Positions 21,036-42,428 of a stretch of DNA of 64,000 nucleotides are shown here, in pieces. Source of the stretch: Gammaproteobacteria bacterium (GTDB lineage Bacteria; Pseudomonadota; Gammaproteobacteria; Eutrophobiales; Eutrophobiaceae); assembly GCA_965205955.1 (NCBI GenBank), contig OZ242192.1, positions 2,376,796 through 2,440,795 on the forward strand. Direction: 5' to 3'. The notes beneath the pieces were generated by a model that was not told the DNA's origin, did not search any database, and saw only the letters and a program-made list of their open reading frames with translations. How positions within the stretch are numbered: the first letter of the stretch is position 1; the number at the start of each line of letters is the position of its first letter. A program made the position numbers and the translations under genes.

Positions 21036-21648
21036 CGGCATATAATGGGATATATATGGTTATATTGGCATATAAATTGTTATAAATTACTATAAACTTT
21101 GAGACAGACATCATGGAAAACCCGTCAAGGCGGTCAGCGCACGGCATATAATGGGCTATATATAGTTATATTGGCATATAAATTGTTATAAATTACTATA
21201 AACTTTGAGACAGACATCATGGAAAACCCGTCAAGGCAGTCAGCGCACGGCATATAATGGGCTATATATGGTTATATTGGCATATAAATTGTTATAAATT
21301 ACTATAAACTTTGAGACAGACGTCATGGAAAACCCGTCAAGGCGGTCAGTGCGCGGCATATAATGGGATATATATGGTTATATTGGCATATAAATTGTTA
21401 TAAATTACTATAAACCTTGAGACAGACATCATAGAAAACCCGTCAAGGCGGTCAGTACGCGGCATATAATGGGATATATATGGTTATATTGGCATATAAA
21501 TTGTTATAAATTACTATAAACTTTGAGACAGACATCATGGAAAACCCGTCAAGGCGGTCAGCGCACGGCATATAATGGGCTATATATGGTTATATTCATG
21601 TATAAATTACTATAAGTACACAAGATGGAAGTCATGGAAAACCCCTTT
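21036..21648. repeat. tandem repeat of five complete 106-bp units plus a partial sixth, carrying the promoter, RBS and first codons of the downstream ATPase gene
   Basis: Units start at 21036, 21142, 21248, 21354, 21460 and 21566. Each unit contains cggcaTATAATggg, TTGGCA-N17-TACTAT and gacatcATGGAAAACCCGtcaagg...taa. That last element is a 12-codon mini-ORF, MENPSRRSAHGI*. The sixth unit has a roughly 10-bp deletion and runs into the real gene start, atggaagtcATGGAAAACCCC. In the fifth unit the mini-ORF ATG is mutated to ATA. Confidence 0.9.
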
Positions 21649-22827: not shown

Positions 22828-25800
22828 TCACACCGCCGCCCACGCATCCGCCATCAATTCCGCCTGTTCCAGCACCCTGTCGGCTGCCAGTTTCTGCTCA
22901 TCGGGCGGATAGCCGTATTTTTTCAGCAGCCGTTTAACGACGGTTCTCAGCTTTGCCCGTGCGCTCTCTTTTATCGTCCAGTCAATTGAGGTGTTCTTTT
23001 TCACGCTCTCGGCAAGGGTTTGCGCAAGCGCCCGCAAAGTGTCATCGGTCATCACTTCTTTTGCGCTCGCATTCATCGCCAGCGCGTCATAAAACGCGAC
23101 TTCATCCTCGGACAGCCCCATATCAACCGCCCGTTCATCGGCCGTTCTGATCTCTTTGGCCATCAGGATCAACTCCTCGATCACCTGCGCCGCCGTCAGC
23201 AGATTGTTTTTGTATCTCCGGATCGCATCCTCGAGCATCTCGGAAAACCTTCTGCTTTGCGCGAGGTTCTTTCGCGTTCGGGTCTGTATCTCATCGGCGA
23301 GGATTTTTTTGAGCAGTTCCAGCGCGAGGTTTTTGCGCTGCATTCCGCGTATCTCCTCGAGGAAATCATCGGACAGGATCGATATGTCGGGCTTTTTGAT
23401 TCCGGCCGCGTCAAAAATATCAATCACGCCGTCCACCACCACCGCCCGGTCAACGATCTGCCGGATTGCGCTTTCCATCTCCGCCCCGCTTACGCCGCTG
23501 CCGTCCCGTTCAAATTTTGTCAGCCGCGCCTTTACCGCCTGAAAAAATCCGACCTCCGCCTTTATCCCCATCGCACGCGGATCGGGAACCGAAAGCGCAA
23601 ACGCCTTCGACAGCAGCACGACCTCACGGGTAAACCTTTCCTTACCGTCCTCAAGACCGAGAATATATTCCTCGGCCTCCAGAATCAGCCTCATCTTTTC
23701 TCCGGCTTTGGCATCGGCGCGGAAGTATTGCCTGTAATCAAACCTGCCAAACATGGCGGCGACCACATCGTATTTTTCCAGCATCTTCGTAACCGCTGTT
23801 TCCTGCTCAAACGCCGGCGTTCCGCCGCCACCGTTTTTCGTGTATGCGCCCAGCGCCCGCTTCAAATCCGAGGCGATGCCAATATAGTCAACCACCAGTC
23901 CGCCGGGCTTGTCCTTGTAAACCCGGTTCACGCGGGCGATTGCCTGCATCAGGTTGTGTCCGCTCATGATCTTGTCAACATAGATGGCGCCCAGACACGG
24001 CGCATCAAAACCCGTCAGCCACATATCGCGCACAATCACCAGTTGCAACGGATCGGTCGGATCCTTGAATCGTTCCCCGAGCGCTTTCCGCTCCGACTTC
24101 GTGGTCGCGTGTTTGTGCCACTCGGCGGGGTCGCTCGAGGATGAGGTCATCACCACCTTTATTGCGCCCTTGTCTTTATCGTCATCGTGCCATTGCGGAC
24201 GCAGGGCGGTTATCTCAGCATACATCTCCACCGCAATGCGGCGGCTCGTGGCGACTATCATCGCCTTGCCTTCAAAGGCTTCCCGCCTGGTTTCAACGTG
24301 GCGCACAATATCCGCCACAACGGTTTTGATGCGGTCCTTGTGCCCGATAATCGCTTCCTGTTTCGTCCATTTGGCCTTGGCTTTTTCGATTGCGGTCGCC
24401 TCCTCGCTTTCGGTTATCTGCTCGATCTCGGCGTCCAGTTCTTCCTTCTCTTCCTGTTTGAGATGCACTTCGACAAGACGCGACTCATAGTAGATGGCCA
24501 CGGTCGCCTTGTCTGTAACCGCCTGCTCGATGTCGTAGACATCTATGTAGTTGCCGAAAACCGCCGGCGTTGAGATGTCTTCTTTCTCAATAGGAGTTCC
24601 GGTAAATCCGATGAAAGAAGATTCGGGAAGGGCATCTCTCAGGTATTTGGCAAAACCGTATTTTGTCCTCACCCCGTCTTTGACAAAATGGGTTTTTGCC
24701 CCGAATCCGTACTGGCTGCGATGCGCTTCGTCGGCGATGACAACGATATTCTTTCTATCCGATAGCAGTTCAAAATTTTCATTTCCTTCTTCAGGTGAAA
24801 ACTTCTGAATGGTCGAAAACACGATGCCGCCGCCCGCCGTTTTCAAAAGCCGCTTCAAATGCTCGCGGCTTTCCGCCTGCTTCGGCTCCTGGCGCAGCAG
24901 ATTTCTGCCCGCCGCAAAGGCCCCGAACAGCTGATCATCGAGATCGTTGCGGTCGGTAATCACAACGATGGTAGGGTTTTCCATTTCCCGATTGACAACC
25001 AGCAGTCCGGCATAAAAAACCATCGCAAGCGATTTTCCGCTGCCCTGCGTGTGCCACACAACGCCCGCCTTGCGGTCTCCTTTCGGCTGATCTTTGACGC
25101 CGGGCAGTCCGTATTTTTGCGGATCTTCCTCTACGGGCAAGCTGACCCTCTTTCCCCCGTGGGATGCTCTTATTGTGGATTCAACCGCTTTTTTAACCGC
25201 ATGGTATTGATGATAGGCGGCGATTTTCTTGATAGTGATGACTTTCGTCATGCTACCACCCTCTCTTCCGTCTCTCCCAGAGGGAGAGAAACTTTTTTGA
25301 GGCAGGGTGTTTTCAATTTTTTGGAGGACTTCCTGTATATTGTTCAGCAGGTCTTTGTTTTTAAATCGCAGGACGGTATTTCCGAGACTTTTCAGAAATT
25401 TGTCTCTTTTTGCGTCTTCTTGTGTCTCCGTATTGTGGACTTCACCGTCAAGTTCAATGATCAGTTTTTCGGAGTGGCAATAAAAGTCGGCGATATAATG
25501 CCCTATTTGGTGCTGTCTCCTGAATTTCAATCCGTTAAACCTTTTATTTCTAAGCAACTCCCAAAAAATTTCTTCCGTTTCGGTCTGCTTTTCCCGTAAC
25601 TCCTTCACCCGCTCAATCATCCCCGCAAACCGCATCCCCGCCCGATAATGCCCCTCCTCACTCTCCCCACCATTCCCAATCCCCCTCCTCTCCCTCTGGG
25701 AGAGGCCGGGAGAGGGTATCAACGGAGTTGATTCAGCAGGAATCAACTCCGTTGATTTCTCAAACACGGTAAAGTGCCGGATCAAATCAATCAGCACATT

Positions 25801-26514
25801 CGGGCGCAGCATTCCCCTGATAACAGTTTCAAGCCAGGGCGTTGTCGCAGGGTCTTCCCTTTCACCGTCCACGGTTTTCCAGGCCATAAAGCGGTTCCAG
25901 CCCGCCGTCAGTGAACCGGCCCTGGCATCGAGTCCGTCCGAGGCCACGAGCACACCGTTATAGCAGAACAGACTCGGTATCGTTTCTTTGTAGTTTTGCA
26001 GTTGATCGAACGCCTTTTGAACGGTTGCCTGTTCATCGGTCGGGTTTTTCAATTCAATCACCGCCATCGGCAGGCCGTTTATGAACACGACAACATCGGG
26101 GCGCTTGGTGGTGTTGTTTTCGGTAACCGTGAACTGATTGCAGACTGCAAGGTTGTTGTTGTGCGGATTTTTAAAGTCAATCAGCCGGACTCTCGCGCCG
26201 ACCGTTTCGCCGTCCTTTTGGTACTCTTCGGCGACACCTTCGACCAGCATTCGATAGAACTCCTGATTGCTTGCAATCAGGTTGTGACCGGAAAGGGAAA
26301 GCACCTGCCGTATCGCCTGCTGCCGCACACCGTTTGGAACCTTCGGATTAAGATTGTCAATCGCGGTTTTGAGGCGGTTGCGCAAAACCACATCGGCAAC
26401 GCCGTCTCTTTCGGTTTCCTGTTGTTCGGGGGGAATGTAGGCGTAACCCTGCTTTTCAAGCAGTTCTACCGCAAACTTTTCCACGTCCGATTCGTAGAGA
26501 GCGGTCATGTGCAA
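22828..26514 (-). CDS. hsdR: type I restriction enzyme R subunit HsdR, with a roughly 165-aa in-frame DUF559 insertion
   Basis: 1228 aa. The N-terminal nuclease/HsdR-N region runs ...LIDLIRHFTVFE. The SF2 motor has the AAYHQYHAV, GSGKS and DEAH-like motifs, and a C-terminal helical domain follows. Between aa 255 and 422 lies FWELLRNKRFNGLKFRRQHQIGHYIADFYCHSEKLIIELDGEVHNTETQEDAKRDKFLKSLGNTVLRFKNKDLL, a complete DUF559 (Vsr-like endonuclease fold) module. Confidence 0.9.
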   Translation of the reverse strand: MHMTALYESDVEKFAVELLEKQGYAYIPPEQQETERDGVADVVLRNRLKTAIDNLNPKVPNGVRQQAIRQVLSLSGHNLIASNQEFYRMLVEGVAEEYQKDGETVGARVRLIDFKNPHNNNLAVCNQFTVTENNTTKRPDVVVFINGLPMAVIELKNPTDEQATVQKAFDQLQNYKETIPSLFCYNGVLVASDGLDARAGSLTAGWNRFMAWKTVDGEREDPATTPWLETVIRGMLRPNVLIDLIRHFTVFEKSTELIPAESTPLIPSPGLSQRERRGIGNGGESEEGHYRAGMRFAGMIERVKELREKQTETEEIFWELLRNKRFNGLKFRRQHQIGHYIADFYCHSEKLIIELDGEVHNTETQEDAKRDKFLKSLGNTVLRFKNKDLLNNIQEVLQKIENTLPQKSFSPSGRDGREGGSMTKVITIKKIAAYHQYHAVKKAVESTIRASHGGKRVSLPVEEDPQKYGLPGVKDQPKGDRKAGVVWHTQGSGKSLAMVFYAGLLVVNREMENPTIVVITDRNDLDDQLFGAFAAGRNLLRQEPKQAESREHLKRLLKTAGGGIVFSTIQKFSPEEGNENFELLSDRKNIVVIADEAHRSQYGFGAKTHFVKDGVRTKYGFAKYLRDALPESSFIGFTGTPIEKEDISTPAVFGNYIDVYDIEQAVTDKATVAIYYESRLVEVHLKQEEKEELDAEIEQITESEEATAIEKAKAKWTKQEAIIGHKDRIKTVVADIVRHVETRREAFEGKAMIVATSRRIAVEMYAEITALRPQWHDDDKDKGAIKVVMTSSSSDPAEWHKHATTKSERKALGERFKDPTDPLQLVIVRDMWLTGFDAPCLGAIYVDKIMSGHNLMQAIARVNRVYKDKPGGLVVDYIGIASDLKRALGAYTKNGGGGTPAFEQETAVTKMLEKYDVVAAMFGRFDYRQYFRADAKAGEKMRLILEAEEYILGLEDGKERFTREVVLLSKAFALSVPDPRAMGIKAEVGFFQAVKARLTKFERDGSGVSGAEMESAIRQIVDRAVVVDGVIDIFDAAGIKKPDISILSDDFLEEIRGMQRKNLALELLKKILADEIQTRTRKNLAQSRRFSEMLEDAIRRYKNNLLTAAQVIEELILMAKEIRTADERAVDMGLSEDEVAFYDALAMNASAKEVMTDDTLRALAQTLAESVKKNTSIDWTIKESARAKLRTVVKRLLKKYGYPPDEQKLAADRVLEQAELMADAWAAV
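25252..25756 (-). mobile_element. in-frame DUF559 endonuclease-like module inside hsdR, bounded by inverted 19-bp hairpin elements
   Basis: Hairpin A (25271-25289) is tctctccc-aga-gggagaga. Hairpin B (25687-25705) is cctctccc-tct-gggagagg, roughly the reverse complement of A. An adjacent 16-bp perfect hairpin, ATCAACGGAGTTGATT-cagcagg-AATCAACTCCGTTGAT, lies at 25718-25756. The DUF559 coding sequence lies between A and B. Confidence 0.45.
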
Positions 26515-27749
26515 TTTTCCCAGAGCGACTTCACCGGCAGCGCATACAGGTTTTCGCCGAAACTCAACACGCTGTCACCGCAATACAGCAACGCGCCGCC
26601 GGCAAAACGCGCGCCCGTCGCGTCTTTGAGTTTGCGCAGCCCTTTGAAGTCCGCGCTCGTTACCGTGCCGGACGCCTTTACTTCTACACACGCCAAAGCG
26701 GTTGCGCCCCGTTGTATGACAATATCGACTTCGCTTCCGGCCCGGTCTCTGAAATGATAAAACGTATGGCGTTGACTATGTGCGCTCGCCTGTCGCCGCA
26801 GTTCCTGCAAAACAAATGTTTCCAGAATATGGCCGAACAATGACCGGTTGCCCGACAGGGTGGCTCGATTCAGGTTGAGCAAGGCGCAGATTACTCCCGT
26901 ATCGCCGAGGTGTATCTTTGGCGTTTTGACCAGCCGTTTCATGTAATTGCCGTGCCATGCGGGCGTTCTCTCCAGCAGAAACATCTTCTCGAGCAAGATC
27001 AGGTAACTGCGAATTGTCAGCCGGCTCAGTTGGAATGAAGACGCCAGACGGTTCACATTCAGAAGCTGTGCGGTGTGCGCCGCCGCCAGTTCGAGCAATC
27101 GAGGCAGGGTTTCAAGAGAATGAATCTCCGCAATCATCGGCGCATCTCTTTCAACCAGGGTTTCAATGTAGGTCTGATACCAGTTTGCCCGCCGTGCTGC
27201 CGAGCGTTGCAGCGCCGCCGGATAACCGCCCGCCACAACCCGGTCGATAATCTGCTCACCGCCCGGCGCGTCCTGGCGAATAGTGAAATTCGGAGCAAAC
27301 ATCGAATCCAGCAAGGTCGGCGGGGTTTGTTCAAGCTCGCTCTGTGAAAAAGGATGCAGCCTTATGATATCCGTCCGACCGGCAAGCGATTCTTTTATCC
27401 GCACCATTTGCAGCAGGTTCACCGAACCGGTCAATATAAAACGCCCCGCTTCACGGTTGCGGTCAACCGACAGCTTGATTGCGGGAAACAGCCCGGGGGC
27501 CAACTGCGCCTCATCCAAAATGACCCGTTCCGGCAGGGTGTTGACAAACCCGGCCGGGTCTTCCACGGCGTAACTGCGCGTGCTTTCATCATCGAGGGTG
27601 AAGTATTCGTAGCCCGCCGGCTTGCCAATCATCCGGGCAAATGTGGTCTTGCCGCACTGACGCGGCCCCTGTATCAGCACAACGGGGGAATCCTGCAATG
27701 CTTCCTGCAAGCGTGGGGCGGCATGGCGGGGGTAGATGGTGTTGTCCAT
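26505..27749 (-). CDS. AAA ATPase with a C-terminal DUF4143 domain (ATP-binding protein common in defence islands)
   Basis: Walker A VLIQGPRQCGKTTFARMIG; Walker B RVILDEAQ; 414 aa. The gene overlaps the hsdR start, suggesting an operon. Confidence 0.75.
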   Translation of the reverse strand: MDNTIYPRHAAPRLQEALQDSPVVLIQGPRQCGKTTFARMIGKPAGYEYFTLDDESTRSYAVEDPAGFVNTLPERVILDEAQLAPGLFPAIKLSVDRNREAGRFILTGSVNLLQMVRIKESLAGRTDIIRLHPFSQSELEQTPPTLLDSMFAPNFTIRQDAPGGEQIIDRVVAGGYPAALQRSAARRANWYQTYIETLVERDAPMIAEIHSLETLPRLLELAAAHTAQLLNVNRLASSFQLSRLTIRSYLILLEKMFLLERTPAWHGNYMKRLVKTPKIHLGDTGVICALLNLNRATLSGNRSLFGHILETFVLQELRRQASAHSQRHTFYHFRDRAGSEVDIVIQRGATALACVEVKASGTVTSADFKGLRKLKDATGARFAGGALLYCGDSVLSFGENLYALPVKSLWENCT

Positions 27750-27754
27750 GGCGT

Positions 27755-27892
27755 GGCTGATTGTTAGTCAAGTATGCGGCTAATTGTTAGTTTAGGGTAT
27801 GGCTGATTGTTAGTGTGGAGTGCGGCTGATTGTTAGTCAAGTATACGGCCAATTGCAAGCTCAGGGGGTGGATGATTGCAAGATCAGGGGGG
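27755..27892. repeat. six tandem 23-bp repeats in the promoter/5' region of the DUF4143-ATPase and hsdR operon
   Basis: The units are GGCTGATTGTTAGTCAAGTATGC, GGCTAATTGTTAGTTTAGGGTAT, GGCTGATTGTTAGTGTGGAGTGC, GGCTGATTGTTAGTCAAGTATAC, GGCCAATTGCAAGCTCAGGGGGT and GGATGATTGCAAGATCAGGGGGG. They begin 6 bp upstream of the ATG at 27749. On the minus strand each unit carries a TTGACT (-35-like) element. Confidence 0.7.
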
Positions 27893-27951
27893 CTTTCTAT
27901 CTTTGGGTCGTTCTACTGCGAGTTCTTCAACATCGGATTCGTGGCGGGCAG

Positions 27952-28803
27952 TTATTTCGACTTGTCAGCCAGGGGACGCGGATTTTTCAAGCCTTTTTTC
28001 TCGTCGGATTTCAGTTTTCTCGCCACTTTCTTGACATCTTCTTCGGGAGGCAGTTTTTCCGGTTGAATGCCGCGCTCTATCAGGGTCTTCCTTACGCTTT
28101 CGTTACTGGTGATGTGCTCATCGGATATTTCCTTTTCGCTGTGCATACGGTTTTTATCGACGTTGAATATCGTAATCTCCGTGGCAAAGTCTTTCGCCTT
28201 GAGAATGATGGTCGGGGCAAAATCCGCCAAAGCCCGGTTTTTCGGAACCTGCCATTTGTCTTTCATCTGTTCGGTGGTGTAACCGAACAATGCCTTGTCG
28301 CCTTTGGAGCGGATAATGCCGAAGTTTCGGTCGCTTCTCGTTTGTTCATAGATGACACCGGACAGCTCTTTTTCGGTGTCCGCCAGTTTTCGGCGAGCGG
28401 ACACCCTTTCGGCTTCCAGCATTTTCTGTTGGATAATCTCGAACTTTCTGGTCTGAGTGGCAAAGTAGGTTTGGGCTAAGGCGATTTCTTCCTTGCGCGG
28501 GTCGCCGTTTTGGGCGATGAGGTAGCAGGCGTAGCGGGTGAGCATGATGTCGGCCACTTCCCGTTGGCTGCCGGAGCCCAGGGAGACCATTTTGCTGGCG
28601 TCAACGAAATGGTCGGAAATTGTATGATTTGAGACCTCACAGGCGATTTTGGCTTTGTTGGCAACCTGTAAGAAGTTTCGCCAGTCTGTATAGCCCAGCA
28701 GACGCTGAAGGTCGCGGGCGAGCCAGAATTCAACACCGTTTTCGGTTTGGTTGGCGTGGGATTCAAAGTCTTTGGTGAGGGATTGTATGATTTCGGTTTT
28801 CAT
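27952..28803 (-). CDS. dinD: DNA-damage-inducible protein D (DinD/KilAC-domain family)
   Basis: VEFWLARDLQRLLGYTDWRNFLQVANKAKIACEVSNHTISDHFVD...LGSGSQREV...LTRYACYLIAQNGDP matches the E. coli DinD pattern. Confidence 0.7.
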   Translation of the reverse strand: MKTEIIQSLTKDFESHANQTENGVEFWLARDLQRLLGYTDWRNFLQVANKAKIACEVSNHTISDHFVDASKMVSLGSGSQREVADIMLTRYACYLIAQNGDPRKEEIALAQTYFATQTRKFEIIQQKMLEAERVSARRKLADTEKELSGVIYEQTRSDRNFGIIRSKGDKALFGYTTEQMKDKWQVPKNRALADFAPTIILKAKDFATEITIFNVDKNRMHSEKEISDEHITSNESVRKTLIERGIQPEKLPPEEDVKKVARKLKSDEKKGLKNPRPLADKSK

Positions 28804-28966
28804 TTTGGGGTTCCGATGGTTAAATGAGAATTGTGTCCGTGAATGGTTGTTATTTTACATTATAGGGGGTGGGTTCCCAAAACTGCAGTTTCGAGGTGGT
28901 AGACTTCGCCCTTATCAGAGGGTTCGACAGGTATGGTATCTTTACAAGTGGTGAGCAATCAAGAAT

Positions 28967-30280
28967 ATGATGAATAGCAACAAGGGAGGAAAAATGCGTG
29001 CCTTGCAGGATACATTTGGTCTTTTGGCAGACAAATTACTTTTGATGGAAGGAAATCCTAGCGCTTCTTGGGAAAGAAGTGCGGCAGACCTGATTCCACA
29101 GTTAATTCATATTCTTATCCAAGAGAAGTTCCCAGAGAATAGGAAGACAAAGCCACCTTTGATTTTTTCCGCGATTTCGGAGGATGAGAAAATTTTCCAT
29201 CCTTTCCGAAAACTTAAATTTCAGCTCATTCATAGTGAGTCGTTCACTATTCGCTCAGATAAAAAATTACATGTGGACCAAAAACTCGCCATTTTCACTA
29301 TCCCTATGCTGTATTCAGTTCCTGAATTTTCCCATCAATTGTCACCACGCACCCAAAAAAATCTTTCAGATTCTCCAAATCAGGATCTTGAAACTTCTGA
29401 CCTGTTGCGTTTTGAACATCCTATTGATCCAAGTGAAGTAAAGGAGGTTGCCATTGAGTTTACGGTACAAGGACATCTGGGGGGTGGCTTTTGCACATTC
29501 ATTTATGAAAATCCTTTTGATGAAAATCCACACAAAAAACTTACTCTGAACGAATGGTTGGAACAACCCGTTCTATCGGTAAACGGGCATATGTTCACAA
29601 TAGAAGAAATTATCAAGGAAGTGAGAAACAAAATCGCAGTACATCGGTCTGCTCCAGAAAGCATTAACAAGAAATCATTTATTTACAATACGAGATACAT
29701 TAACGCTTGCGGGGCTTATTGGTCTTATTTTATTTTCTTCTGTGCGCTCCATATCATCACTATAATTCAACAAAAGATAAAAACTGAAATGCGACTCGAT
29801 ATTGATGATAATTTTGCAAAAATTGCTGAATCGAAAAGACCCGATCTAACCACTTTTGGATGGGAAACTAAAGATTGGGGGGGGATAGAATCTTATCTTG
29901 TTCTTTCTGATAATGTTGAATTTATCGCCAATGAGGATATGTCAAAAAACACAACCAAGATATCGTTTTTCTCTTTCAGATTAGAGAGTCAAATGGGACT
30001 ACAGGTTTACTCCATCCCTAGCGTGTTTTTTAGTTTGAAAGCGCAAAAAGAAAAGGAAAGCATAGATGAAGAGAATTGTTTATATTTTAATTTGAAGGAA
30101 AAGAAATGTGGTTTTGGTCTGCATTTCAGAACCACTGCCGATGCGTGGTGTGAATTCGTCAGGGATGAAAAGAATATATTTACGGCAAGGCTTGTCACGT
30201 TCACCGATTATCCCATAAAGGGGAGTATATTCTATAATGACGTTAAAAATACCATGCGCATATTATTTAGCTTTTTGTAA
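28967..30280 (+). CDS. hypothetical protein, 437 aa, AT-rich, with no recognisable motif; the only plus-strand gene in the R-M island
   Basis: Long intact ORF in a roughly 33% GC segment (28.8-31.7 kb), convergent with the DUF3644 gene. No Walker, nuclease or HTH motif was recognised by eye. Confidence 0.45.
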   Translation: MMNSNKGGKMRALQDTFGLLADKLLLMEGNPSASWERSAADLIPQLIHILIQEKFPENRKTKPPLIFSAISEDEKIFHPFRKLKFQLIHSESFTIRSDKKLHVDQKLAIFTIPMLYSVPEFSHQLSPRTQKNLSDSPNQDLETSDLLRFEHPIDPSEVKEVAIEFTVQGHLGGGFCTFIYENPFDENPHKKLTLNEWLEQPVLSVNGHMFTIEEIIKEVRNKIAVHRSAPESINKKSFIYNTRYINACGAYWSYFIFFCALHIITIIQQKIKTEMRLDIDDNFAKIAESKRPDLTTFGWETKDWGGIESYLVLSDNVEFIANEDMSKNTTKISFFSFRLESQMGLQVYSIPSVFFSLKAQKEKESIDEENCLYFNLKEKKCGFGLHFRTTADAWCEFVRDEKNIFTARLVTFTDYPIKGSIFYNDVKNTMRILFSFL

Positions 30281-30782
30281 AATCTAATCAAGGGAATGCT
30301 GCACGAGTTGTCATACCGCAATGAAAATGTCATATTGATAACGTATCATCTTCTGCCCTTCGTTGCTCCATTGAAGTTGTTGACGTGTCGCTATCCACTT
30401 CAACCCACCGCACCTCATGGCCACCATGAGAGATATGCAGATTGCTATCCAACCATTCACGTATTTCCTATCGTTATGGTATCCGGCACAGGGGTGAGAA
30501 ACAGTCGTTCAATTCGTCGCCGCTTCTGTGCCTTCATAGTCGCAAAAACTCCGCGTGGATGAGTCCTGATAGCAGCCTCCTTTATCGTCATGTTCTTCTC
30601 CATAACACATTCGCAGATTTCAACACGCTTCATTTCTGCTATACTTACATTCTGTCCTCTTGTGGTATTCCATGCTTCATATTGAAGCACAACTAAGGGG
30701 GCTTTTTCACGTTGTCTTAATACGACATTTTCATTGTGGTATGACAGTTAACTACATAATTCCCAAATATTTTGTCATGATG

Positions 30783-31754
30783 CTAAGTATATTCTGATCT
30801 ATTGTTTTCACAGTGATTTTTCACGAACGTTAACCATGAATGATACCAGTACCATGTTTTGGCAACTTTTGTTCCAAATCCTTTTGATGGATTTTTTGCA
30901 TTTTCTTTTTGCCATAATTTCGTATGTTGATGTATTTTGAATTTGTTAAATCCATTTCTTTGCATTTCTTTGCAAATTTCACCTGGCAAATATTTCATCT
31001 TTTCCTTCTCTATGACATATTCCTTTTTAAGCCCTTTTGCTATATCAGAATCTGGCGAAATGAACTCAATCACTCTATCCGCTTGTCCTTTTCGATTAGC
31101 CGTTCTTAAGACAAATAAAACTCTGTATGAAAACCTACTATCATTGAAATATCCCTCCGACAAACCTTGATCAAAATCTTGAATATAAGAAGAGATATTT
31201 TGGGGCAAATCTTTGTAATCACGTAAGTCAGCGACTTGACCTTCGCTCAGAGAAGAAAATTGTAGGCTAAAGGACAGGTGTTTTTCGATGCCATCTTTCT
31301 TTGGAAATAATTTTTTAAGATATGTATTGTAATTCAAACAACAGGATTGAAAACGAGCATTTAAAAAATCATCGATTCTTGTTGTCATTCTATGTTCTAT
31401 TTCGTGTCTTAGCCCAATTAAAAATTTTAAATTTAATGTCGTAATTTTGTCAATTGGAGATTTTTCACTATCCAAGCATTTCTCCAATTCCCAGTATTTA
31501 TAGGCATTTTTTTTTGTAGTGGAAAATTTTCTCCGCCTTCCATTTATTTTAAAATATTTGTATTCTATATTCTTGTCATGATAATAGGCATGTAGCAAAT
31601 AAGTCCAAGCAATAATTGAAAGAACGATGAATGACTCTGATTTAAATTGCATATTTGGGTTGTTGAATATTTGAACGGCCGCCAGCATGCCCTCTTTTGA
31701 CTTGCGAAGCTGTTCATTCTTTATAGAGCCAAATTTTCTCGTTCTGCTAGCCAT
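30783..31754 (-). CDS. DUF3644-like protein, commonly found next to hsdS
   Basis: The N-terminus MLAAVQIFNNPNMQFKSESFIVLSIIAWTYLLHAYY fits the DUF3644 N-terminal pattern. The gene overlaps the hsdS stop by 8 bp. Confidence 0.5.
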   Translation of the reverse strand: MASRTRKFGSIKNEQLRKSKEGMLAAVQIFNNPNMQFKSESFIVLSIIAWTYLLHAYYHDKNIEYKYFKINGRRRKFSTTKKNAYKYWELEKCLDSEKSPIDKITTLNLKFLIGLRHEIEHRMTTRIDDFLNARFQSCCLNYNTYLKKLFPKKDGIEKHLSFSLQFSSLSEGQVADLRDYKDLPQNISSYIQDFDQGLSEGYFNDSRFSYRVLFVLRTANRKGQADRVIEFISPDSDIAKGLKKEYVIEKEKMKYLPGEICKEMQRNGFNKFKIHQHTKLWQKENAKNPSKGFGTKVAKTWYWYHSWLTFVKNHCENNRSEYT

Positions 31755-32961
31755 GATATGAAAATGGACTTATTCTCGCTTTTCCACTCATCAACTTCGG
31801 CAACAAAATATCGCGCAGTTTTTTGAGCGTGCGGATTTGAGATTTATTCTTCCGATTTTTATCAAAAACCGATTCTACAGTATCTTGAAATTTATAAACT
31901 AATTCATGCGGATACTTGGGAAAATCAATCGATACTAAATTAGTCTGATTTATTTTCGGTTGTACTGCCCCAGTAATGTATCTCTCAATATTTAATTTCA
32001 AAAGAAAGTGCCAGATAAAAAAGTTATCGTAAGGTTTTTTTGCTTTAAGCACATGGGTATGATTATTCACCCAAAACTTTCCACTAGTATATTGTAAAAC
32101 AGGATACCCTTCACCTGCCTTAACCGTCCCATCTTCGGCCATTAGAATGTATTCGCCTTCGAAAATATAGTCGTTTATGTAATCCATAACTTGAGCAGCT
32201 CCGTAGTATGGATACAATGAATCTCCATCCTTCATTTTTTGCCTTTCTATTTTGGAAAGCGGGATTCTTTTGCTGTCAAAAATCTCTACCACATCCCCTA
32301 GCTTTCCAAACTCCCACCCTTCATTCGCATCTTCCACAAACCACTTGCGAAACAATGCCTGTGCCATATCTTCAAGTGTTTTGTTCTGGCGGTGGAGCAG
32401 CTCTATTTTGTCGTCCAGCGATGATAACACTTCGGCAATGGCTTTTTGTTCGGGAAGTGGGGGGAGAAAAAATTTGTAATCTTTAATTGTTTTTGGTGAT
32501 GTGTGCTTTATTGATGTTCCACTTGCTGCGCCAACTATAAACCAGTGATATTCACCAGTACGCATTAGCCAATAAATAAAATTTCTATCAACCTCTTTTG
32601 ATTCAAATTGTAATAACCCTATCCGCTGATTGTGTAAATACATTTCATCGTTTTTATTATTTTTGGGAACTTTTGCTGAAAAACCAAGAGTGTCTCCTTG
32701 TTTGCTCAAATCAGTCATTGTTACAATAACATCACCTTCTTTCAGAATATAATCTTGTGGAATTTCACCTCTAAAATATTTTAACTTTGATGATTTGAAT
32801 CCTCCACCTATATGAAAATTTCCAGGTGTAACCAAAATATTGTTGTTTGTTTCATCTGTAATATATTTCCCCTTGAAAGCATAGCCGTGTTTTATATCAA
32901 CTAAATCCCCCAACCTAACCTCGCGCCACCCGTGCCGTTCTTTTTGCTCCATCCCGCTCAT
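31747..32961 (-). CDS. hsdS: type I restriction-modification specificity subunit HsdS, with two target-recognition domains
   Basis: Conserved central and C-terminal coiled-coil LPPLPEQKAIAEVLSSLDDKIELLHRQNKTLEDMAQALFRKWF, with two TRD-like halves; 404 aa. Confidence 0.85.
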   Translation of the reverse strand: MSGMEQKERHGWREVRLGDLVDIKHGYAFKGKYITDETNNNILVTPGNFHIGGGFKSSKLKYFRGEIPQDYILKEGDVIVTMTDLSKQGDTLGFSAKVPKNNKNDEMYLHNQRIGLLQFESKEVDRNFIYWLMRTGEYHWFIVGAASGTSIKHTSPKTIKDYKFFLPPLPEQKAIAEVLSSLDDKIELLHRQNKTLEDMAQALFRKWFVEDANEGWEFGKLGDVVEIFDSKRIPLSKIERQKMKDGDSLYPYYGAAQVMDYINDYIFEGEYILMAEDGTVKAGEGYPVLQYTSGKFWVNNHTHVLKAKKPYDNFFIWHFLLKLNIERYITGAVQPKINQTNLVSIDFPKYPHELVYKFQDTVESVFDKNRKNKSQIRTLKKLRDILLPKLMSGKARISPFSYHG

Positions 32962-33284
32962 TGCTCCGAATATATCTGCTCTTTCGTCAACAGTGTTTTC
33001 GCTTTCTCTTCGATGTGCCGTCTCATCGGCGGGTAATCTACAAAGTTGAACACCTGCACATCCACCTTGTATGGCAACGAACTCTCATCAAACAAAGTCC
33101 ACAAACGGTCGGTGGTCGCTCCATCGATGTCGCCGTAAAGCACCAAGTCAATATCGGAATAACTTTTGTAGTTTCCCGTTGCCCTTGAGCCGAACAAGGA
33201 TGCTTTTTCAATGCCGGGGCAATGTTCGCGGAGAATTTTTGCGATACCGCCAATTTGCCGTGCGCTCAATCCATGCGTGGACAT
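32958..33284 (-). CDS. mntA: nucleotidyltransferase (MNT-domain antitoxin of a HEPN/MNT pair)
   Basis: GSRATGNYKSYSDIDLVLYGD carries the GS...D.D polymerase-beta NTase motif; 108 aa. Confidence 0.8.
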   Translation of the reverse strand: MSTHGLSARQIGGIAKILREHCPGIEKASLFGSRATGNYKSYSDIDLVLYGDIDGATTDRLWTLFDESSLPYKVDVQVFNFVDYPPMRRHIEEKAKTLLTKEQIYSEQ

Positions 33285-33288
33285 TGTC

Positions 33289-33702
33289 TCAGAACTGCTC
33301 TCCTAAAACTTCGTAAAGTTCTCCGAAACATGCAAGGTATCTTTTGCTGATCTGCTCTAACGCCTCCTCAAATTTTTTGAAGTCGTAGGTGTGGCTCATT
33401 TTATTACGCACATCCAACGCCGTCATCCAGCCCTCGCCGTCGTGTATGAGATTTGCGGCAATCGCCTCTTTGATAATGGCGCGGGGAGTAACCTGCCCAA
33501 ACACAACATTGTTGTATTCCAGATAGTCCTTTGCCGCCTTCCATGCAAGTTCCATACAGTATTCAAAGCGTTGGATCATGCCCTCTTTTTCCAACTGTGT
33601 CATAGACCCATCACTGTATTTTTCGTTGGCCTCTTGTAGAAGAGTGTATGCTCTACTGAAATTGTTAAAGCGATATTTCCAGCGCGGTTTTTCTTCGCTC
33701 AT
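33289..33702 (-). CDS. hepT: HEPN-domain nucleotidyltransferase substrate-binding protein (HepT-like toxin, HI0074 family)
   Basis: MSEEKPRWKYRFNNFSRAYTLLQEANEKY...RFEYCMELAWKAAKDYLEY...ALDVRNKMSHTYD is the HEPN Rx4-6H-like region. The gene lies 4 bp upstream of mntA. Confidence 0.75.
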   Translation of the reverse strand: MSEEKPRWKYRFNNFSRAYTLLQEANEKYSDGSMTQLEKEGMIQRFEYCMELAWKAAKDYLEYNNVVFGQVTPRAIIKEAIAANLIHDGEGWMTALDVRNKMSHTYDFKKFEEALEQISKRYLACFGELYEVLGEQF

Positions 33703-34231
33703 GTTCTGTTCTCCAGTCGTTAATGTCGGTAATCTGTAAATACATTCGCCGCTCACCGGCGCGAATAGAACGAACCCGTTCCAGAAGTTCCTTGAAATAA
33801 TCCCTACCAAAGACCCGCGTACCCTGCTTGAGCCGTTGGTCATTCATGGCAAAGCCTTCGATGATATATTCTTTCAAAACCTGAGTCGCCCAGATGCGAA
33901 ATTGTGTGGCACGCCTGGAGTTGACCCGATAGCCAACAGCAATGATGGCGTCGAGATTGTAGAACTTCGTTTTGTAACGCTTTCCATCTCCGGCAGTAAG
34001 TTCCAAAATGGAACTTACTGATTTTTCCGGCAATTCACCACTCTTAAAGATGTTTCCGAGATGCTTGGTTATGGCGGGCCTTTGAACCCCGAACAATCGC
34101 GCAATATTTTCCTGCGTCAGCCACAATGTCTCATCTTGTAGCGTAACCTCGAGCCGCACCTCACCGTGAGGCGTGGTGTAAAGGATAAAATCGGCATTGC
34201 CGGAGGACGGCGATTTATTTTTCATACTCAA
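33665..34231 (-). pseudogene. rhuM: virulence protein RhuM family (Fic/DOC-like), 3'-truncated at the hepT-mntA insertion
   Basis: LYTTPHGEVRLEVTLQDETLWLTQENIARLFGVQRPAITKHLGNIFKSGELPE...GYRVNSRRATQFRIWATQVLKEYIIEGFAMNDQRL...RRMYLQITDI matches the first roughly 180 aa of the roughly 330-aa RhuM proteins. It then diverges (NDWRTEHERRKTALEISL*) and overlaps the hepT start. Confidence 0.65.
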
Positions 34232-35891
34232 TTTTGCCCAGGTTCTCCAAGATCCGCTTGTTCAACTCCGCCTCTTCTTTTATCTGCCCTTCAAATTCCG
34301 CTTTGAGTGCGGTAAATCTCTCTTCAAAGTCAAAATCATCCTCGGTTTCCGCCAGCCCCACATAGCGCCCCGGACTCAGCACATAGTCCAACTCTGCGAC
34401 CTTTGCCGTCTTGACCGAGGCGCAAAAGCCGGGGATGTCTTGATATGGGATGCCCTCACCTTCTTTTCCTCTCTCAGAGGGAGAGGAAGGTTGGTGATCT
34501 TTTCCTTTCTCAGGGGAAGGTTGATGATCTTTTCCTCTCCCTTTGGGAGAGGCTAGGTGAGGGTCCCTCCTCCACTGGTGGTAGGTGTTGACAACCCTGG
34601 CTATATCTTCATCTGAAAACTCCCGGGTGCGGCGGTTGATCAAATGCCCCAACTCGCCCGCGTCTATGAACAGGATCTCATCCTGGCGTTTCCGGTCGCC
34701 GTTGTAGCCGTGCCGTTTGTTGGAGACAAACCACAGGCAGGCGGGGATTTGCGTGTTCAGGAACAGTTTTGCCGGCAGATTGACAACGCAGTCCACAATG
34801 CCGGCATCGATGATGTTTTTGCGGATGACGTCTTCGTTGGATGATTTGGAGGTGAGCGAGCCTTTTGACAGCACGAAACCGGCCACGCCTTTGGGCGAGA
34901 GGTGGTGTATGAAGTGCTGCACCCAGGCAAAGTTGGCGTTGCCGGTTGGCGGAATGCCGTATTTCCATCGGCTGTCGCCTTCTAATTGTTTGCCGCTCCA
35001 GTCGCTGTCGTTGAAGGGCGGGTTGGCGAGGATGAAATCGGCTTTCAAGTCGGGATGGGCGTTGTTCAGGAATGAGCCTTCGTTGTTCCATTTCACCTGC
35101 CCGCCGTCTATCTGGCGAATGGCCAGGTTCATCCGGCAGAGGCGGTAGGTGGTCTGGTTGCTCTCCTGTCCGTAGATGGAGATGTTGTCGATGTTGCCCT
35201 GGTGCTGTTTGACGAATTTCTCACTCATCACGAACATGCCGCCGCTGCCGCAGCAGGGGTCGAACACCCGGCCCTTGTACGGCTCTATCATTTCCACCAG
35301 CAGTTTTACAATCGAGCCCGGGGTGTAGAACTGGCCGCCTTTTTTGCCTTCGGTGAGGGCGAACTGGCCGAGAAAATATTCATAGACTTTGCCGAGCAGG
35401 TCTCTCGATTTCGCGGCTTCATCGCCGAGGGCGATGTTGCCGACCAGGTCGATCAACTCGCCAAGCGTTGCGGATGCGACGTTCGGCCTGGAGTATACTT
35501 TCGGCAGAATGCCTTTCAGGGTGTTGTTCTCTCTTTCTATGGCTTCCATGGATTCGTCTAAAATCTTGCCGATGGTTTCCTGTCTCGCTTGTGCTTTGAT
35601 GTGGCTCCATCTTGCGTTCGGCGGCACCCAGAAAACGTTTTCCGCTCTGTATTCGTCCGGGTCTTCGGCGTCGGCGTGTTGATATTCCCCTTCGCCGGCG
35701 GTGAGTCTGGCGTGCAGGGTTTCAAAGGAGTCGGAGATGTATTTGAGGAATACCAGGCCGAGCACAACGTGTTTGTATTCCGCTGCGTCTATGTTGTTGC
35801 GCAGCTTGTCCGCGGCTTTGAATAGCTGGTTTTCAAAATTGCCGGCTTTTTCGGCGTGGTTTTCGGTCGTGGTCTTGCTGTCGGTCAACAT
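34215..35891 (-). CDS. hsdM: type I restriction-modification DNA methyltransferase subunit HsdM (N6-adenine), with a low-complexity in-frame insertion
   Basis: HsdM N-domain AADKLRNNIDAAEYKHVVLGLVFLKYISD; SAM motif FDPCCGSGGMF; catalytic NPPFN; 558 aa. Inserted SPKGRGKDHQPSPEKGKDHQPSSPSERGKEGEG at 34458-34560. Confidence 0.9.
   Translation of the reverse strand: MLTDSKTTTENHAEKAGNFENQLFKAADKLRNNIDAAEYKHVVLGLVFLKYISDSFETLHARLTAGEGEYQHADAEDPDEYRAENVFWVPPNARWSHIKAQARQETIGKILDESMEAIERENNTLKGILPKVYSRPNVASATLGELIDLVGNIALGDEAAKSRDLLGKVYEYFLGQFALTEGKKGGQFYTPGSIVKLLVEMIEPYKGRVFDPCCGSGGMFVMSEKFVKQHQGNIDNISIYGQESNQTTYRLCRMNLAIRQIDGGQVKWNNEGSFLNNAHPDLKADFILANPPFNDSDWSGKQLEGDSRWKYGIPPTGNANFAWVQHFIHHLSPKGVAGFVLSKGSLTSKSSNEDVIRKNIIDAGIVDCVVNLPAKLFLNTQIPACLWFVSNKRHGYNGDRKRQDEILFIDAGELGHLINRRTREFSDEDIARVVNTYHQWRRDPHLASPKGRGKDHQPSPEKGKDHQPSSPSERGKEGEGIPYQDIPGFCASVKTAKVAELDYVLSPGRYVGLAETEDDFDFEERFTALKAEFEGQIKEEAELNKRILENLGKIEYEK
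34458..34560. repeat. three tandem roughly 36-bp in-frame repeats inside hsdM built from the CCTCTCCC-N3-GGGAGAGG hairpin element
   Basis: cctctctc-aga-gggagagg (34468-34486); cctttctc-agg-ggaagg, degenerate (34504-34520); cctctccc-ttt-gggagagg (34534-34552). The same hairpin family flanks the DUF559 insert in hsdR. Confidence 0.7.
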
Positions 35892-40562: not shown

Positions 40563-42023
40563 CTATTGGGCTGTTAGTATCACCTTGATGGAATTTATTA
40601 TTGCTTTGATGTAATCGCTGAATGCTTCCGCATGCTTTCCCCGGGCGAATTTTGCGCCTCCCCGTTTGGTGTATGCCTGGATATATTGCGGGTCGATTGC
40701 AATCGCCTTGCCGTAGTCTTCAATGGCTTCCGCATGCTTTTGCAAAGCGGATTTTGCAAGCCCGCGCTTGTTATATGCCCCCGCATCCCGGGGGTTGATT
40801 GCAATGGCCTTGCTGTAGTCTTCAATGGCTTCCTCATGCTTTTGCAAAAATGATTTTGCAAATCCACGGTTGTTGTATGCCCTCGCATCCTGGGGGGTGA
40901 TTTCCGTTGCTCTGGTGTAGTCCTCAATGGCTTCCGCATGCTTTTGCAAAGCGAATTTTGCAAGTCCACGGTTGTTGTATGAGTCTGCTTCCTGCGGATT
41001 GATTTCAATTGCCTTGTTGTAGTCTTCAATGGCTTCCGCATGCTTTTGCAAAAATGATTTTGTAAGTCCGCGAATGTGGTATGCCCGGGCATCCTGGGAG
41101 TTGATTTCAATTGCCTTGCTGTAGTCTTTAATGGCTTCCGCATGCTTTCCCAAAGTCGATTTTACAAGTCCGCTGATGTGGTATCCTGATTCATCCTCTG
41201 GATTGGTTTCACTTGCCTTGCCGTACCCTCTACGGACTTCCGCACGCTTTCCCGAAGCAGATTTTTCATTGCCCCGGTTGTGGTGTGCCTGGGTACCTTT
41301 CAGGGCGATTTCAATTGCTTTTTTGTAGTCTTCAATGGCTTCCTTAAAATTTTCCAAAGCAGATTTTGTGTCGGCCCGGCTGGTGTATGCCTGGATATAT
41401 TGCGGGTTGATTTCAATTGCCTTGCTGTAGTCTTCAATGGCTTCCGTATATTCTTCTAAAGAATATTTGGCATTGCCCCGGTCGTGGTATATCTGGGTAC
41501 CTTGCGGGTCTAATTCAATTGCCTTGTTATAGTCTTCAATGGCTTCCGCGTGATTTCCCAAATCAGATTTTGCATTGCCCCGGTTGTGGTATGACCGGGC
41601 ATCTTGCGGGTTTAATGCAATTGCCTGAGTATAGTCATCAATGGCTTCCGTATATCTTTCTAAATAATATCTGGCAACACCCCTGTACTTCAATTGCTTT
41701 ATTTTTATGATTCGCCTTGTTATTGCGCCAACTAAAAGGATGAGTATGATACAGCTCAATATTACCCGATTGGATTTTAAATACTGTATTATTGGTTGGA
41801 TGTAGCCCTTGCTTGCTTCCGGATGTTTTCCCAAATCAGATTTTGCATTGCCCTCATTATAGAGTACCCCGACATCTTGCCGGTTGTTTTCAGCCAGTGG
41901 CTGGACCGGTGAAATATTGAGTGCCGCTCCTCCCCCGAAAAACAGGATGATGACCAGGGCACATGGCAAACCTGACCGGGGGAAAACATACCTAATAGAA
42001 GAAAAAACCTCATTCATTCGCAT
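40563..42023 (-). CDS. tetratricopeptide-repeat protein with an N-terminal signal/TM segment; internal 102-bp DNA-level repeats
   Basis: More than 10 consecutive TPR units (...AYHIRGLTKSFLQKHAEAIEDYNKAIEINPQ...). The nucleotide repeats of gcttccgcatgcttttgcaaa... are nearly identical, which suggests recent intragenic expansion. Confidence 0.7.
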   Translation of the reverse strand: MRMNEVFSSIRYVFPRSGLPCALVIILFFGGGAALNISPVQPLAENNRQDVGVLYNEGNAKSDLGKHPEASKGYIQPIIQYLKSNRVILSCIILILLVGAITRRIIKIKQLKYRGVARYYLERYTEAIDDYTQAIALNPQDARSYHNRGNAKSDLGNHAEAIEDYNKAIELDPQGTQIYHDRGNAKYSLEEYTEAIEDYSKAIEINPQYIQAYTSRADTKSALENFKEAIEDYKKAIEIALKGTQAHHNRGNEKSASGKRAEVRRGYGKASETNPEDESGYHISGLVKSTLGKHAEAIKDYSKAIEINSQDARAYHIRGLTKSFLQKHAEAIEDYNKAIEINPQEADSYNNRGLAKFALQKHAEAIEDYTRATEITPQDARAYNNRGFAKSFLQKHEEAIEDYSKAIAINPRDAGAYNKRGLAKSALQKHAEAIEDYGKAIAIDPQYIQAYTKRGGAKFARGKHAEAFSDYIKAIINSIKVILTAQ

Positions 42024-42428
42024 ACCTGTAACTCTCCAAAGAAATAAATTGCCAAAAAAGACCGGGCGGTGCGGCGCGTTGTGATGGATGGCTACCAATG
42101 CCCAAGTATACAAGTTACCAAAAAATTCATAAATTGCAACAGTGAAGCAGGAATGTATTGCATTGGGAAGGAGAGGGATATCCGGCCGGGGACAACCTGT
42201 GTTCGACTGCGTCTATATTGCTGCAGAGCTTGTTTGCTATTTGCAACAACCGGTTTGCGCAATTGTCCGCTGTTGCGGAACGGCTTTTTCACGGGCTTGC
42301 TGTAGGTAAAAATGATTTCTCCCGGGGAAGGGCTTTATAGTAGCGTATTATGATTACAGGGTGGCAGCGTTGGAATTCCGGTCATTGTAACCCGCACTGC
42401 TTTTGGGGAGCCTTTTTTCTGTGACTTT

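Follow-up and report, generated by a model that had tools for sequence, protein, structure and literature searches.

The question raised by this locus is why a small hairpin-forming element is present three times, in frame, inside hsdM, the gene for the methyltransferase subunit of a type I restriction-modification (R-M) system. The gene lies in a 64,000-nt stretch of contig OZ242192.1 from a gammaproteobacterium, referred to below as the window. Judged from comparisons of sequences, the hsdM triplet is probably a form, lacking an open reading frame (ORF), of a palindrome-bounded cassette that carries a DUF559 nuclease, with a full copy of the cassette in hsdR. The features of hsdM and its insert, in coding order, are the following.

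34215-35891, minus strand: hsdM, type I R-M methyltransferase subunit, 558 aa, with Pfam N6_Mtase and HsdM_N; host of the hairpin-only element.
34453-34563, minus strand: ORF-less palindromic element, 111 nt between terminal inverted repeats, encoding DPHLASPKGRGKDHQPSPEKGKDHQPSSPSERGKEGEG.
34555-34563, minus strand: outer terminal repeat, 5' end in coding orientation, CCCTCACCT on the coding strand, matching the canonical left terminus ACCCTCACCCC.
34534-34552, minus strand: hairpin 1, perfect, CCTCTCCC-aaa-GGGAGAGG; CCTCTCCCtttGGGAGAGG.
34504-34520, minus strand: hairpin 2, degenerate; CCTTTCTCAGGGGAAGG, coding strand CCTTCCCCTGAGAAAGG.
34466-34488, minus strand: hairpin 3, perfect 8-bp stem TTCCTCTC/GAGAGGAA; CCTCTCYC core with one mismatch.
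34453-34461, minus strand: outer terminal repeat, 3' end in coding orientation, AGGTGAGGG on the coding strand, encoding GEG and matching the canonical right terminus GGGGTGAGGGT.

The gene was assigned to a type I system from its two Pfam domains (N6_Mtase, 2.3e-101; HsdM_N, 4e-24) together with the presence of hsdS (31747-32961) and hsdR (22828-26514) in the operon, and its best PDB match was 3khk (1.7e-126). The minus-strand translation of HsdM holds exactly KGRGKDHQPSPEKGKDHQPSSPSERGKEGEG, and the three in-frame copies claimed with this peptide in an initial annotation of the DNA were recovered. A 25-nt unit was located three times on the plus strand, starting at 34462, 34498, and 34528. 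The description of the copies as tandem units of about 36 bp was therefore correct as to their number but not as to their regularity, the spacing being 36 and then 30 nt; compared with the exact 36-nt unit of the relative L086, hairpin 2 has lost 6 nt. The core-motif match of hairpin 3 is at 34468-34486 (CCTCTCTCagaGGGAGAGG, one mismatch). An inverted repeat of 9 bp without mismatch, CCCTCACCT (34453-34461) and AGGTGAGGG (34555-34563), encloses the whole element, whose strand folds as one long composite hairpin (−26.4 kcal/mol as DNA, z −3.1; −57.4 kcal/mol as RNA, z −4.0). No Rfam family was matched by the element, and a subthreshold match to mir-3202 (27.7 versus 90 bits) was rejected as spurious. 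The array was not called by Tandem Repeats Finder at a score of at least 30, which indicates that it is short and imperfect as a tandem repeat.

Matches to CCTCTCYC-N3-GGGAGAGG with at most one mismatch were found at three sites in the window (0.00 expected from 100 shuffles), and with at most three mismatches at four sites, equal to eight matches on both strands (0.22 expected on both strands). Perfect palindromes with pyrimidine arms, of any motif and with a stem of at least 7, occur at four places in the 64 kb, all within hsdM or hsdR. Counting the degenerate hsdM copy, there are five hairpin sites, all intragenic, and the claim of five occurrences confined to R-M genes was borne out, with three in hsdM and two in hsdR. 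The features of hsdR, again in coding order, are as follows.

22828-26514, minus strand: hsdR, type I restriction subunit, 1228 aa, with HSDR_N, SWI2_SNF2, T1R_D3-like, and T1RH-like_C (Pfam); frame intact.
25718-25756, minus strand: extra 17-bp perfect palindrome, ATCAACGGAGTTGATTC-n5-GAATCAACTCCGTTGAT, encoding STELIPAESTPLI, at the left cassette junction; not of the pyrimidine-arm type.
25258-25717, minus strand: DUF559 cassette, from terminal inverted repeat to terminal inverted repeat, in frame in hsdR between the nuclease and motor domains.
25687-25705, minus strand: left (5') cassette hairpin, CCTCTCCC-aga-GGGAGAGG, encoding LSQRER.
25303-25611, minus strand: DUF559 (Vsr-like PD-(D/E)XK nuclease), HsdR residues 302-404; PF04480, 2.5e-37; PDB 3hrl, 1.6e-18.
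25271-25289, minus strand: right (3') cassette hairpin, TCTCTCCC-tct-GGGAGAGA, encoding SPSGRD.

The hsdR cassette is bounded by an outer 8-bp inverted repeat (ACCCTCTC at 25258-25265 and GAGAGGGT at 25710-25717), and its left and right hairpins are complementary to each other at 17 of 17 positions. The insert separates the HSDR_N nuclease domain from the SWI2/SNF2 motor, and the PF04480 match scored 127.5 bits against a gathering cutoff of 20.6. Residues E66, D68, G69, H72, and D79 (numbering of alignment A2) are invariant in 20 of 20 sequences, including that of the window; with these conserved acidic and histidine active-site residues, the domain is predicted to be a nuclease. The ORF is continuous, no Hint or intein family was found in HsdR with Pfam, and no Rfam intron reached its gathering score between 22000 and 36500 of the window. 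The initial annotation did not list the 9-bp repeat that closes the hsdM element, the role of the hsdR hairpins as the ends of a DUF559 cassette, or the terminal architecture that the hsdM element shares with this cassette without having its nuclease.

The earlier suggestion that the element inserts into coding DNA was supported by the orthologs. The structure 3khk aligns to HsdM residues 17-443 and 487-519, leaving residues 444-486 as extra, a surplus put at about 36 residues, and about 110 of 120 HsdM orthologs are without the insert and read TYHQWRK-xDGxYxDIPGFC. An hsdM with 95% DNA identity to that of the window (P0003, locus L002) is an empty allele, relative to which the element swaps out about 14 nt of the ancestral loop, for a net gain of 108 nt. 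Five close relatives have versions of 66-114 nt. At this site the inserts are 114 nt in L086, 108 nt in the window, 78 nt in L087, 72 nt in L001, 66 nt in L088, and 0 nt in L002 (the window's relatives are in ENA assemblies ERZ25069316 and ERZ25069326). All variants are multiples of 3 and the 558-aa ORF of the window is intact, as was anticipated in the proposal that copy number could change without a frameshift. In L086 the insert consists of three exact 36-nt units, each made up of a terminus-like stretch and a hairpin, and the array is thus deduced to have arisen by tandem duplication of that unit; in L087 the hsdM hairpins are decayed. Head-to-tail units (36, 30 or 36, 36 nt) numbering one to three among the relatives correspond to a coding-region variable-number tandem repeat, a description that covers the expansion step only.

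These copy-number changes are also what would be expected if the triplet were a local tandem duplication, made by replication slippage in a Pro/Gly/Lys linker of HsdM, and if its resemblance to hsdR were a by-product of similar linker peptides. The changes among relatives are of whole units, and the 36-nt unit with its spacer is confined to this hsdM lineage, from which the triplication was deduced to be a local duplication. The linker is moreover predicted to be disordered: residues 446-479 gave a pLDDT of 30-37 and no secondary structure, between well-predicted elements, in an AlphaFold2 model of mediocre overall quality (mean pLDDT, 63.7). Slippage as a complete account is nevertheless quite unlikely. 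The insert is absent from most orthologs, so something must first have been inserted; both canonical cassette termini are present, the outer inverted repeat of 9 bp being perfect; different hosts translate the same palindrome in three frames, so that selection on the peptide cannot explain it; and full cassettes are found at the identical site elsewhere. Slippage thus explains the expansion step and not the origin.

The notion of the 36-nt unit as a dispersed repeat was abandoned, as its spacer was found nowhere else in the window or in the JGI metagenomes; a metagenome scan with the 21-nt spacer GGAAAAGATCAYCAACCTTCC gave four matches, all unrelated. Small unrelated inserts are present at the same HsdM linker in other lineages. 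The P0061 HsdM has a segment, VPAKAGTQ, that resembles a repetitive extragenic palindrome (REP), and a different palindromic repeat family of another REP type (peptides VVPAKAGTQ and SREGGNP) is represented in P0061 and at HsdM site B of L016. The linker is therefore generally permissive and takes several kinds of palindromic DNA.

The derivation of the hsdM element from a cassette is indicated by its ends. Full cassettes are present in HsdM exactly between TYHxWR and YxDIPGFC in L012, a metagenome-assembled genome of the Nitrospiraceae, and in Methylococcus sp. ANG (P0505, WP_367026872.1, 693 aa). Both begin with CCCTCACCC followed by a palindrome and finish with a palindrome followed by GGGGTGAGGG, in the order CCCTCACCC-n12-CCCTCTCCCagcGGGAGAGGG...DUF559...CCTTCTCCCgctGGGAGAGGG-n6-GGTGAGGG. 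The window's element reads CCCTCACCT-ag-CCTCTCCCaaaGGGAGAGG...TCCTCTCCCtctGAGAGAGGA-aaagaa-GGTGAGGG, with no nuclease inside, and it has the same two termini as the full HsdM cassettes. Solo inserts, that is, palindromes without the nuclease, stand at the window's hsdM site in L003, L027, and L038, with cassettes elsewhere in the operon, and two more are present at different HsdM sites in P0505. Solo hairpins also form in-frame tandem arrays, with periods of 63 nt in L032, about 42 nt in L073, and 84 nt in L053. The arrays of L032 and L073 are at 4716-4935 and 5356-5464, respectively, and the HsdR of L032 holds nine solos besides its cassette.

The association of the palindromes with DUF559 was then found to extend across phyla. 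When GTDB species genomes were searched with a profile of the nuclease core, 80 loci were obtained, of which 74, from more than 15 phyla, were analyzable. Among the 80 are loci from Planctomycetota, Verrucomicrobiota, Nitrospinota, Nitrospirota, Acidobacteriota, Cyanobacteriota, Bacteroidota, Thermodesulfobacteriota, Elusimicrobia, Patescibacteria, Gammaproteobacteria, and one Methanophagales archaeon. Perfect palindromes flank the nuclease on both sides in 45 of the 74 loci and on one side in 24. Their stems vary by lineage yet remain perfectly complementary (CCCTCTCCC/GGGAGAGGG, TCCCTCCC/GGGAGGGA, CCCCTCCTT/AAGGAGGGG, CCTCCCCTT/AAGGGGAGG, and CCCCTCT/AGAGGGG). Over the 80 loci, palindromes were 26-fold denser within 250 nt of the nuclease (3.9 per kb) than elsewhere (0.15 per kb); the density of pyrimidine-arm palindromes expected by chance was estimated at about 0.003 per kb. 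The palindromes are adjoined by outer motifs, ACCCTCACCCC on the left (21 of 57) and GGGGTGAGGGT on the right (21 of 60), compared with 1.5% for random 30-mers. The layout of the cassette is accordingly (A)ACCCTCACCCC, the palindrome CCCTCTCCC-nnn-GGGAGAGGG or a covarying variant, a DUF559 domain of about 110 aa, a second palindrome, and GGGGTGAGGGT.

No such palindromes were found at the ycjD-like DUF559 locus of Escherichia coli. When viral contigs were scanned with the DUF559 profile, 12 matches were obtained, all of them distant (32-44% identity), and there was no sign of phages carrying this clade; the plasmid collection contained distant DUF559 genes only (<60% identity). In Neisseria gonorrhoeae NZ_CP119142.1 (L106, at about 49.5 kb), a DUF559 gene 42% identical to the window cassette is followed by the pyrimidine-arm palindromes CTCTCTCCCtgtGGGAGAGAG and CCCTCCCCCacaGGGGAGGG with a 281-bp period. 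This gene is possibly a member of the family represented by 3HRL, a solved N. gonorrhoeae structure, and the species could serve as a tractable model.

The concentration beside DUF559 bears on the possibility that the hairpin is a generic genome-wide repeat, similar to a REP or to a miniature inverted-repeat transposable element (MITE), that is unrelated to DUF559 and hit R-M genes by chance in the window. The hsdM element does have the terminal inverted repeats, small size, lack of an ORF, and in-frame position by which MITEs and the Rickettsia palindromic elements (RPEs) are recognized; other palindromic families, such as the VPAKAGTQ-type insert of P0061, do occupy the same HsdM site; and some solo palindromes are in non-R-M genes. 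The target-site duplication of such elements is, however, absent: 14 nt of the loop have been exchanged, and the junctions have no direct repeats. Palindromes of this family were confined to hsdM and hsdR in a sample of about 186 kb taken from the source and its near relatives, and in unrelated genomes they are again mostly in R-M genes, so that, within this sampling, the earlier claim of enrichment in R-M genes over random REP-like abundance stood. With the 26-fold concentration in 80 unrelated loci, a generic repeat is considered very unlikely.

Host proteins make use of each of the three reading frames of the palindromes (26, 12, and 20 cases), and the translations by frame are SPxGRG, LSxxER/SQxEG, or PLPxGEG, all of them Pro/Ser/Gly-rich linkers. 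Since all three frames are used, the conserved object is deduced to be the DNA palindrome and not a peptide. The arms, being all pyrimidine or all purine, cannot contain a stop codon, whichever of the six frames is read; only codons that span the loop can be stops, and 54 of the 64 possible loops are stop-free in all six. With stop-free ends, a cassette can occupy a surface loop of the host without splicing, the nuclease being made as an internal domain of the host protein. A DUF1156 methylase-like gene on the Synechocystis sp. B12 plasmid CP101712.1 (L107, 34727-37251) is annotated as three coding sequences because a DUF559 cassette with canonical termini lies inside it; the left terminus there has a TAG, and the host frame is thus broken.

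Long open frames of 550-1390 codons enclose 33 of the 35 loci closest to the window cassette. The genomic ORFs that embed the domain number 42 and include 19 with N6_Mtase (14 of them with HsdM_N), 13 complete HsdR, 6 Eco57I, 2 MmeI, 2 HsdS, and 1 type ISP. As an orphan family DUF559 is very large, more than 24,000 clusters having matched the query; the representative search, made with a query itself embedded in an R-M gene, gave 24,621 clusters (50% identity) at an E value of at most 1e-3. In the best 150 of these, 76 proteins embed the domain, among them 26 HsdS, 13 N6_Mtase, 9 Eco57I, 7 MmeI, 6 HSDR_N, and 4 TaqI_C. The insertion points number at least four in HsdR and three in HsdM, with another at the HsdS junction after the central conserved helix and others in type IIG enzymes. 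The nearest neighbor by nuclease core was at the same site for 26 of 27 HsdS cassettes, 6 of 7 at HsdR site 2, 3 of 4 at HsdR site 1, and 8 of 15 at HsdM site A; the cores thus cluster in part by insertion site.

The host bias could alternatively reflect selection by the host, with the insert serving as an extra nuclease, as a length-tunable linker for subunit contacts, or as a phase-variation switch operated by copy number or inversion. The intact frames in 33 of 35 close loci, the conserved catalytic residues, and units in multiples of 3 are in keeping with this. Furthermore, inverting the segment between the two hsdR hairpins in a simulation brings in stops that truncate HsdR and would switch the gene off, and "DUF559 domain-containing protein" is enriched among predicted programmed-inversion targets with an odds ratio of 14.3 (PMC9881135), although this enrichment may reflect the flanking palindromes. 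We nonetheless consider a host-selected feature unlikely. The several sites in HsdR, HsdM, HsdS, and type IIG enzymes share no common structural position; carriers are uncommon and polyphyletic; relatives show decay of the hsdM hairpins; in-frame copy changes leave the gene on; no inverted variant was seen and no adjacent invertase was found; and no PADLOC model matched the cassette. The earlier proposal that the hsdM repeat modulates interactions between R-M subunits is not supported, in that the insert is predicted to be disordered, its length and hairpins drift, and most orthologs function without it.

The distribution of the hsdR cassette was compared with the descent of its host. A 14-aa loop without insert is present in 108 of the 120 HsdR orthologs listed, and among these 120 the cassette is carried only by the source genome's own protein, a 98% relative, and the 60%-identical P0239. 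The nearest empty hsdR allele (L087) has a 51-nt ancestral loop where the window has about 552 nt. In an HsdR host tree built after excision of the inserts, the site-1 cassette has polyphyletic carriers, located in three separate parts of the tree, and the window HsdR is nested among empty alleles, being 90% identical to P0123. L003, L006, and L007 form a clade with hosts 58-61% identical to that of the window, and the L008 host is 44% identical; the cassettes of all four are 66-68% identical to the window's. In addition, full cassettes are at the same HsdM site in unrelated host lineages. The polyphyletic carriers fit a repeated acquisition at one homologous site, which would be the signature of homing.

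An ancient domain fusion, followed by vertical descent and repeated loss, with the palindromes as decayed old linkers, would account for the clade formed by L003, L006, and L007 and for a cassette identity between the window and L003 (68%) that is close to host identity (56-62%). It is highly improbable, since the nearest HsdR relatives (87-90% identical) keep an intact ancestral-type 14-aa loop with no scar, the L008 cassette is 68% identical where its host is 44%, and the palindromes beside intact nucleases are perfect and covarying, not decaying. At the left junction of the window cassette, the extra 17-bp palindrome has counterparts in L006 and L007 in which the left arm is the host's own IVFE codons (TTGTTTTTGAAC...GTTCAAAAACAA); the corresponding sequence in L003 is GGTCAACaaaGTTGACC. 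The palindrome has the appearance of a host-flank segment duplicated in inverted orientation at insertion, perhaps by fold-back repair.

The following course of events is proposed for the palindrome-bounded cassette. A full cassette occupies hsdR, and hsdM has both termini without the nuclease gene, at a site filled by a full cassette in other bacteria. The terminus-plus-hairpin unit would have been tandemly duplicated to three copies in the hsdM linker, predicted to be disordered, where the gain, loss, and decay of units proceed by whole codons and no function for the R-M enzyme is evident. The cassette itself may spread into empty alleles by nuclease-triggered, homing-like gene conversion, and solo arrays may result from loss of the ORF between repeated termini or may be nonautonomous copies. 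R-M genes may be favored as safe harbors that are hard to delete and travel horizontally; possible reasons for the preference are this horizontal travel, the addictive nature of R-M systems, and their many permissive loops. The cassette would behave like a homing element that dispenses with splicing, which is unnecessary with ends translatable in any frame.

Several observations weigh against this interpretation. Filled and empty hsdM alleles show no target-site duplication at the junctions, about 14 nt of loop being replaced, and hsdR likewise has a replaced loop without duplication; this fits gene conversion or illegitimate recombination and identifies no mechanism. The 36-nt unit is private to the window's hsdM lineage, and inside its termini the hsdM element has nothing but the hairpin core in common with the genome's own hsdR cassette, so that the element is not a recent derivative of the hsdR copy. 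The 68% cassette identity between the window and L003 is little above that of the hosts, L008 providing the sharper contrast (68% versus 44%). Host-flank co-conversion around the hsdR cassette was unconvincing, the flanks being those of the window's clade except for two or three loop residues, and the case for mobility is comparative throughout. As to the hosts, a few are housekeeping genes; more distant DUF559 relatives are mostly free-standing ORFs of 120-150 codons; the host counts, seeded by an R-M-embedded query, describe this DUF559 clade and not the whole family; and the restriction to hsdM and hsdR applies to the sample of about 186 kb from the source and its near relatives.

The cassette was compared with known systems of similar form. 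RAYTs are HUH/Y1 (IS200/IS605-like) enzymes, and their REPs are extragenic and highly abundant. Like REP/REPIN-RAYT systems, the cassette has an enzyme gene flanked by hairpin repeats, ORF-less copies elsewhere, and stems that covary by lineage; unlike them, its enzyme is a PD-(D/E)XK DUF559 and its repeats are mostly intragenic, translated, and low in copy. Inteins excise at the protein level through Hint-domain chemistry. Those with homing endonucleases are, like the cassette, selfish in-frame insertions at conserved sites that are tolerated as host function survives, whereas the cassette has neither a Hint domain nor splice-junction residues and is expected to remain in the protein. Vsr, encoded by a separate gene, repairs T:G mismatches from 5-methylcytosine deamination and is linked to Dcm-type cytosine methyltransferases. 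The cassette DUF559 belongs to the same nuclease superfamily and is also associated in genomes with DNA methyltransferases, but its hosts are N6-adenine systems (HsdM, Eco57I/MmeI) and the nonmethylating HsdR and HsdS, at many positions.

RPEs (Ogata et al. 2000, 2002, as reviewed in PMC10969869) are about 150 bp long and form about ten families, in unrelated metabolic genes of one genus. RPEs and other intragenic MITEs resemble the hsdM element in being small, palindromic, in frame, and without an ORF of their own, in adding a peptide to an otherwise intact protein, and in appearing compatible with the protein fold. RPEs have no known cognate enzyme, in contrast to the hsdM element, which shares its termini with a nuclease-encoding form found in many phyla. 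The hsdM element also differs from RPEs in its hairpins with pyrimidine and purine arms and in its confinement to R-M genes in the DNA sampled. The Vsr-like EDxHD enzyme I-Bth0305I is housed in a self-splicing group I intron, with relatives in inteins and with N-terminal NUMOD DNA-binding modules (PMC3239194). Its family and the cassette share a Vsr-fold nuclease, a patchy presence at one homologous site, and a functional host gene (PMC3239194). Of the properties of EDxHD homing elements, sporadic presence in divergent alleles was found for the cassette and housing in an intron or intein was not; the nuclease would instead stay in the mature protein between translated palindromes.

More broadly, and more tentatively, it is possible that DUF559 is the nuclease of an unrecognized class of mobile element, namely, palindrome-bounded cassettes that need neither intron nor intein, with one clade specialized on R-M genes. 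In the literature covered, which is incomplete, no published description of palindrome-flanked DUF559 cassettes in R-M genes was found. The termini would have three jobs, as stop-free translatable linkers, as recombination or recognition sites for the nuclease, and as seeds of ORF-less solos. The specialized clade, with HsdR, HsdM, HsdS, and type IIG enzymes as its safe harbors, may reshape or switch defense enzymes. If correct, this would give a concrete and testable role to a large nuclease family of "unknown function" and would add to introns and inteins a third way for a selfish nuclease to reside in an essential or addictive host gene, in which the element stays in the protein by means of termini unable to encode stops in any frame. 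It would account for the recurrent PSPxGRG, PLPxGEG, and LSxxER peptides in annotation, for odd architectures with DUF559 inside HsdS, HsdM, HsdR, Eco57I, or MmeI, and for gene calls that split R-M genes, such as the DUF1156 gene of Synechocystis sp. B12. It would also mark permissive insertion sites in type I R-M subunits that are useful for engineering. The hsdM triplet itself would most likely be a neutral, drifting remnant and not a regulatory device.

The surroundings of the two genes have further features. Between hsdM, hsdS, and hsdR, the type I R-M operon is interrupted at 26505-34231 by passenger genes, which are RhuM, an NTase_sub_bind/NTP_transf_2 (HEPN/MNT-like) pair, DUF3644, a 437-aa ORF, Bro-N, and an AAA_14/DUF4143 ATPase; upstream of the operon are a NERD-UvrD helicase and an M78/IrrE peptidase. 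Together, this region looks like a defense island. A tandem unit of 23 bp is present in 4.1 copies at 27755-27849, between the DUF4143 ATPase and Bro-N genes. A CRISPR-like array at 6577-7803 has about 18 copies of the 36-nt repeat ATTGTAACACACAAGGAAATGCGGTCTCACCGCAAC with a 66-bp period. At 20941-21013, a 35-bp tandem unit in 2.1 copies, with a hairpin plus a T-run, is terminator-like. It is followed at 21036-21596 by a 106-bp AT-rich tandem repeat (5.3 copies, 95% identity), each unit of which has TATAAT-like runs and a conserved GC-rich tail; this repeat is directly upstream of an AAA_16 ATPase ORF (21625-22800, plus strand) and could be an iteron-like or promoter array. Finally, the gene for a tetratricopeptide repeat (TPR) protein at 40563-42113 is a DNA-level tandem repeat of 102 bp, with 9.4 copies at 75% identity.

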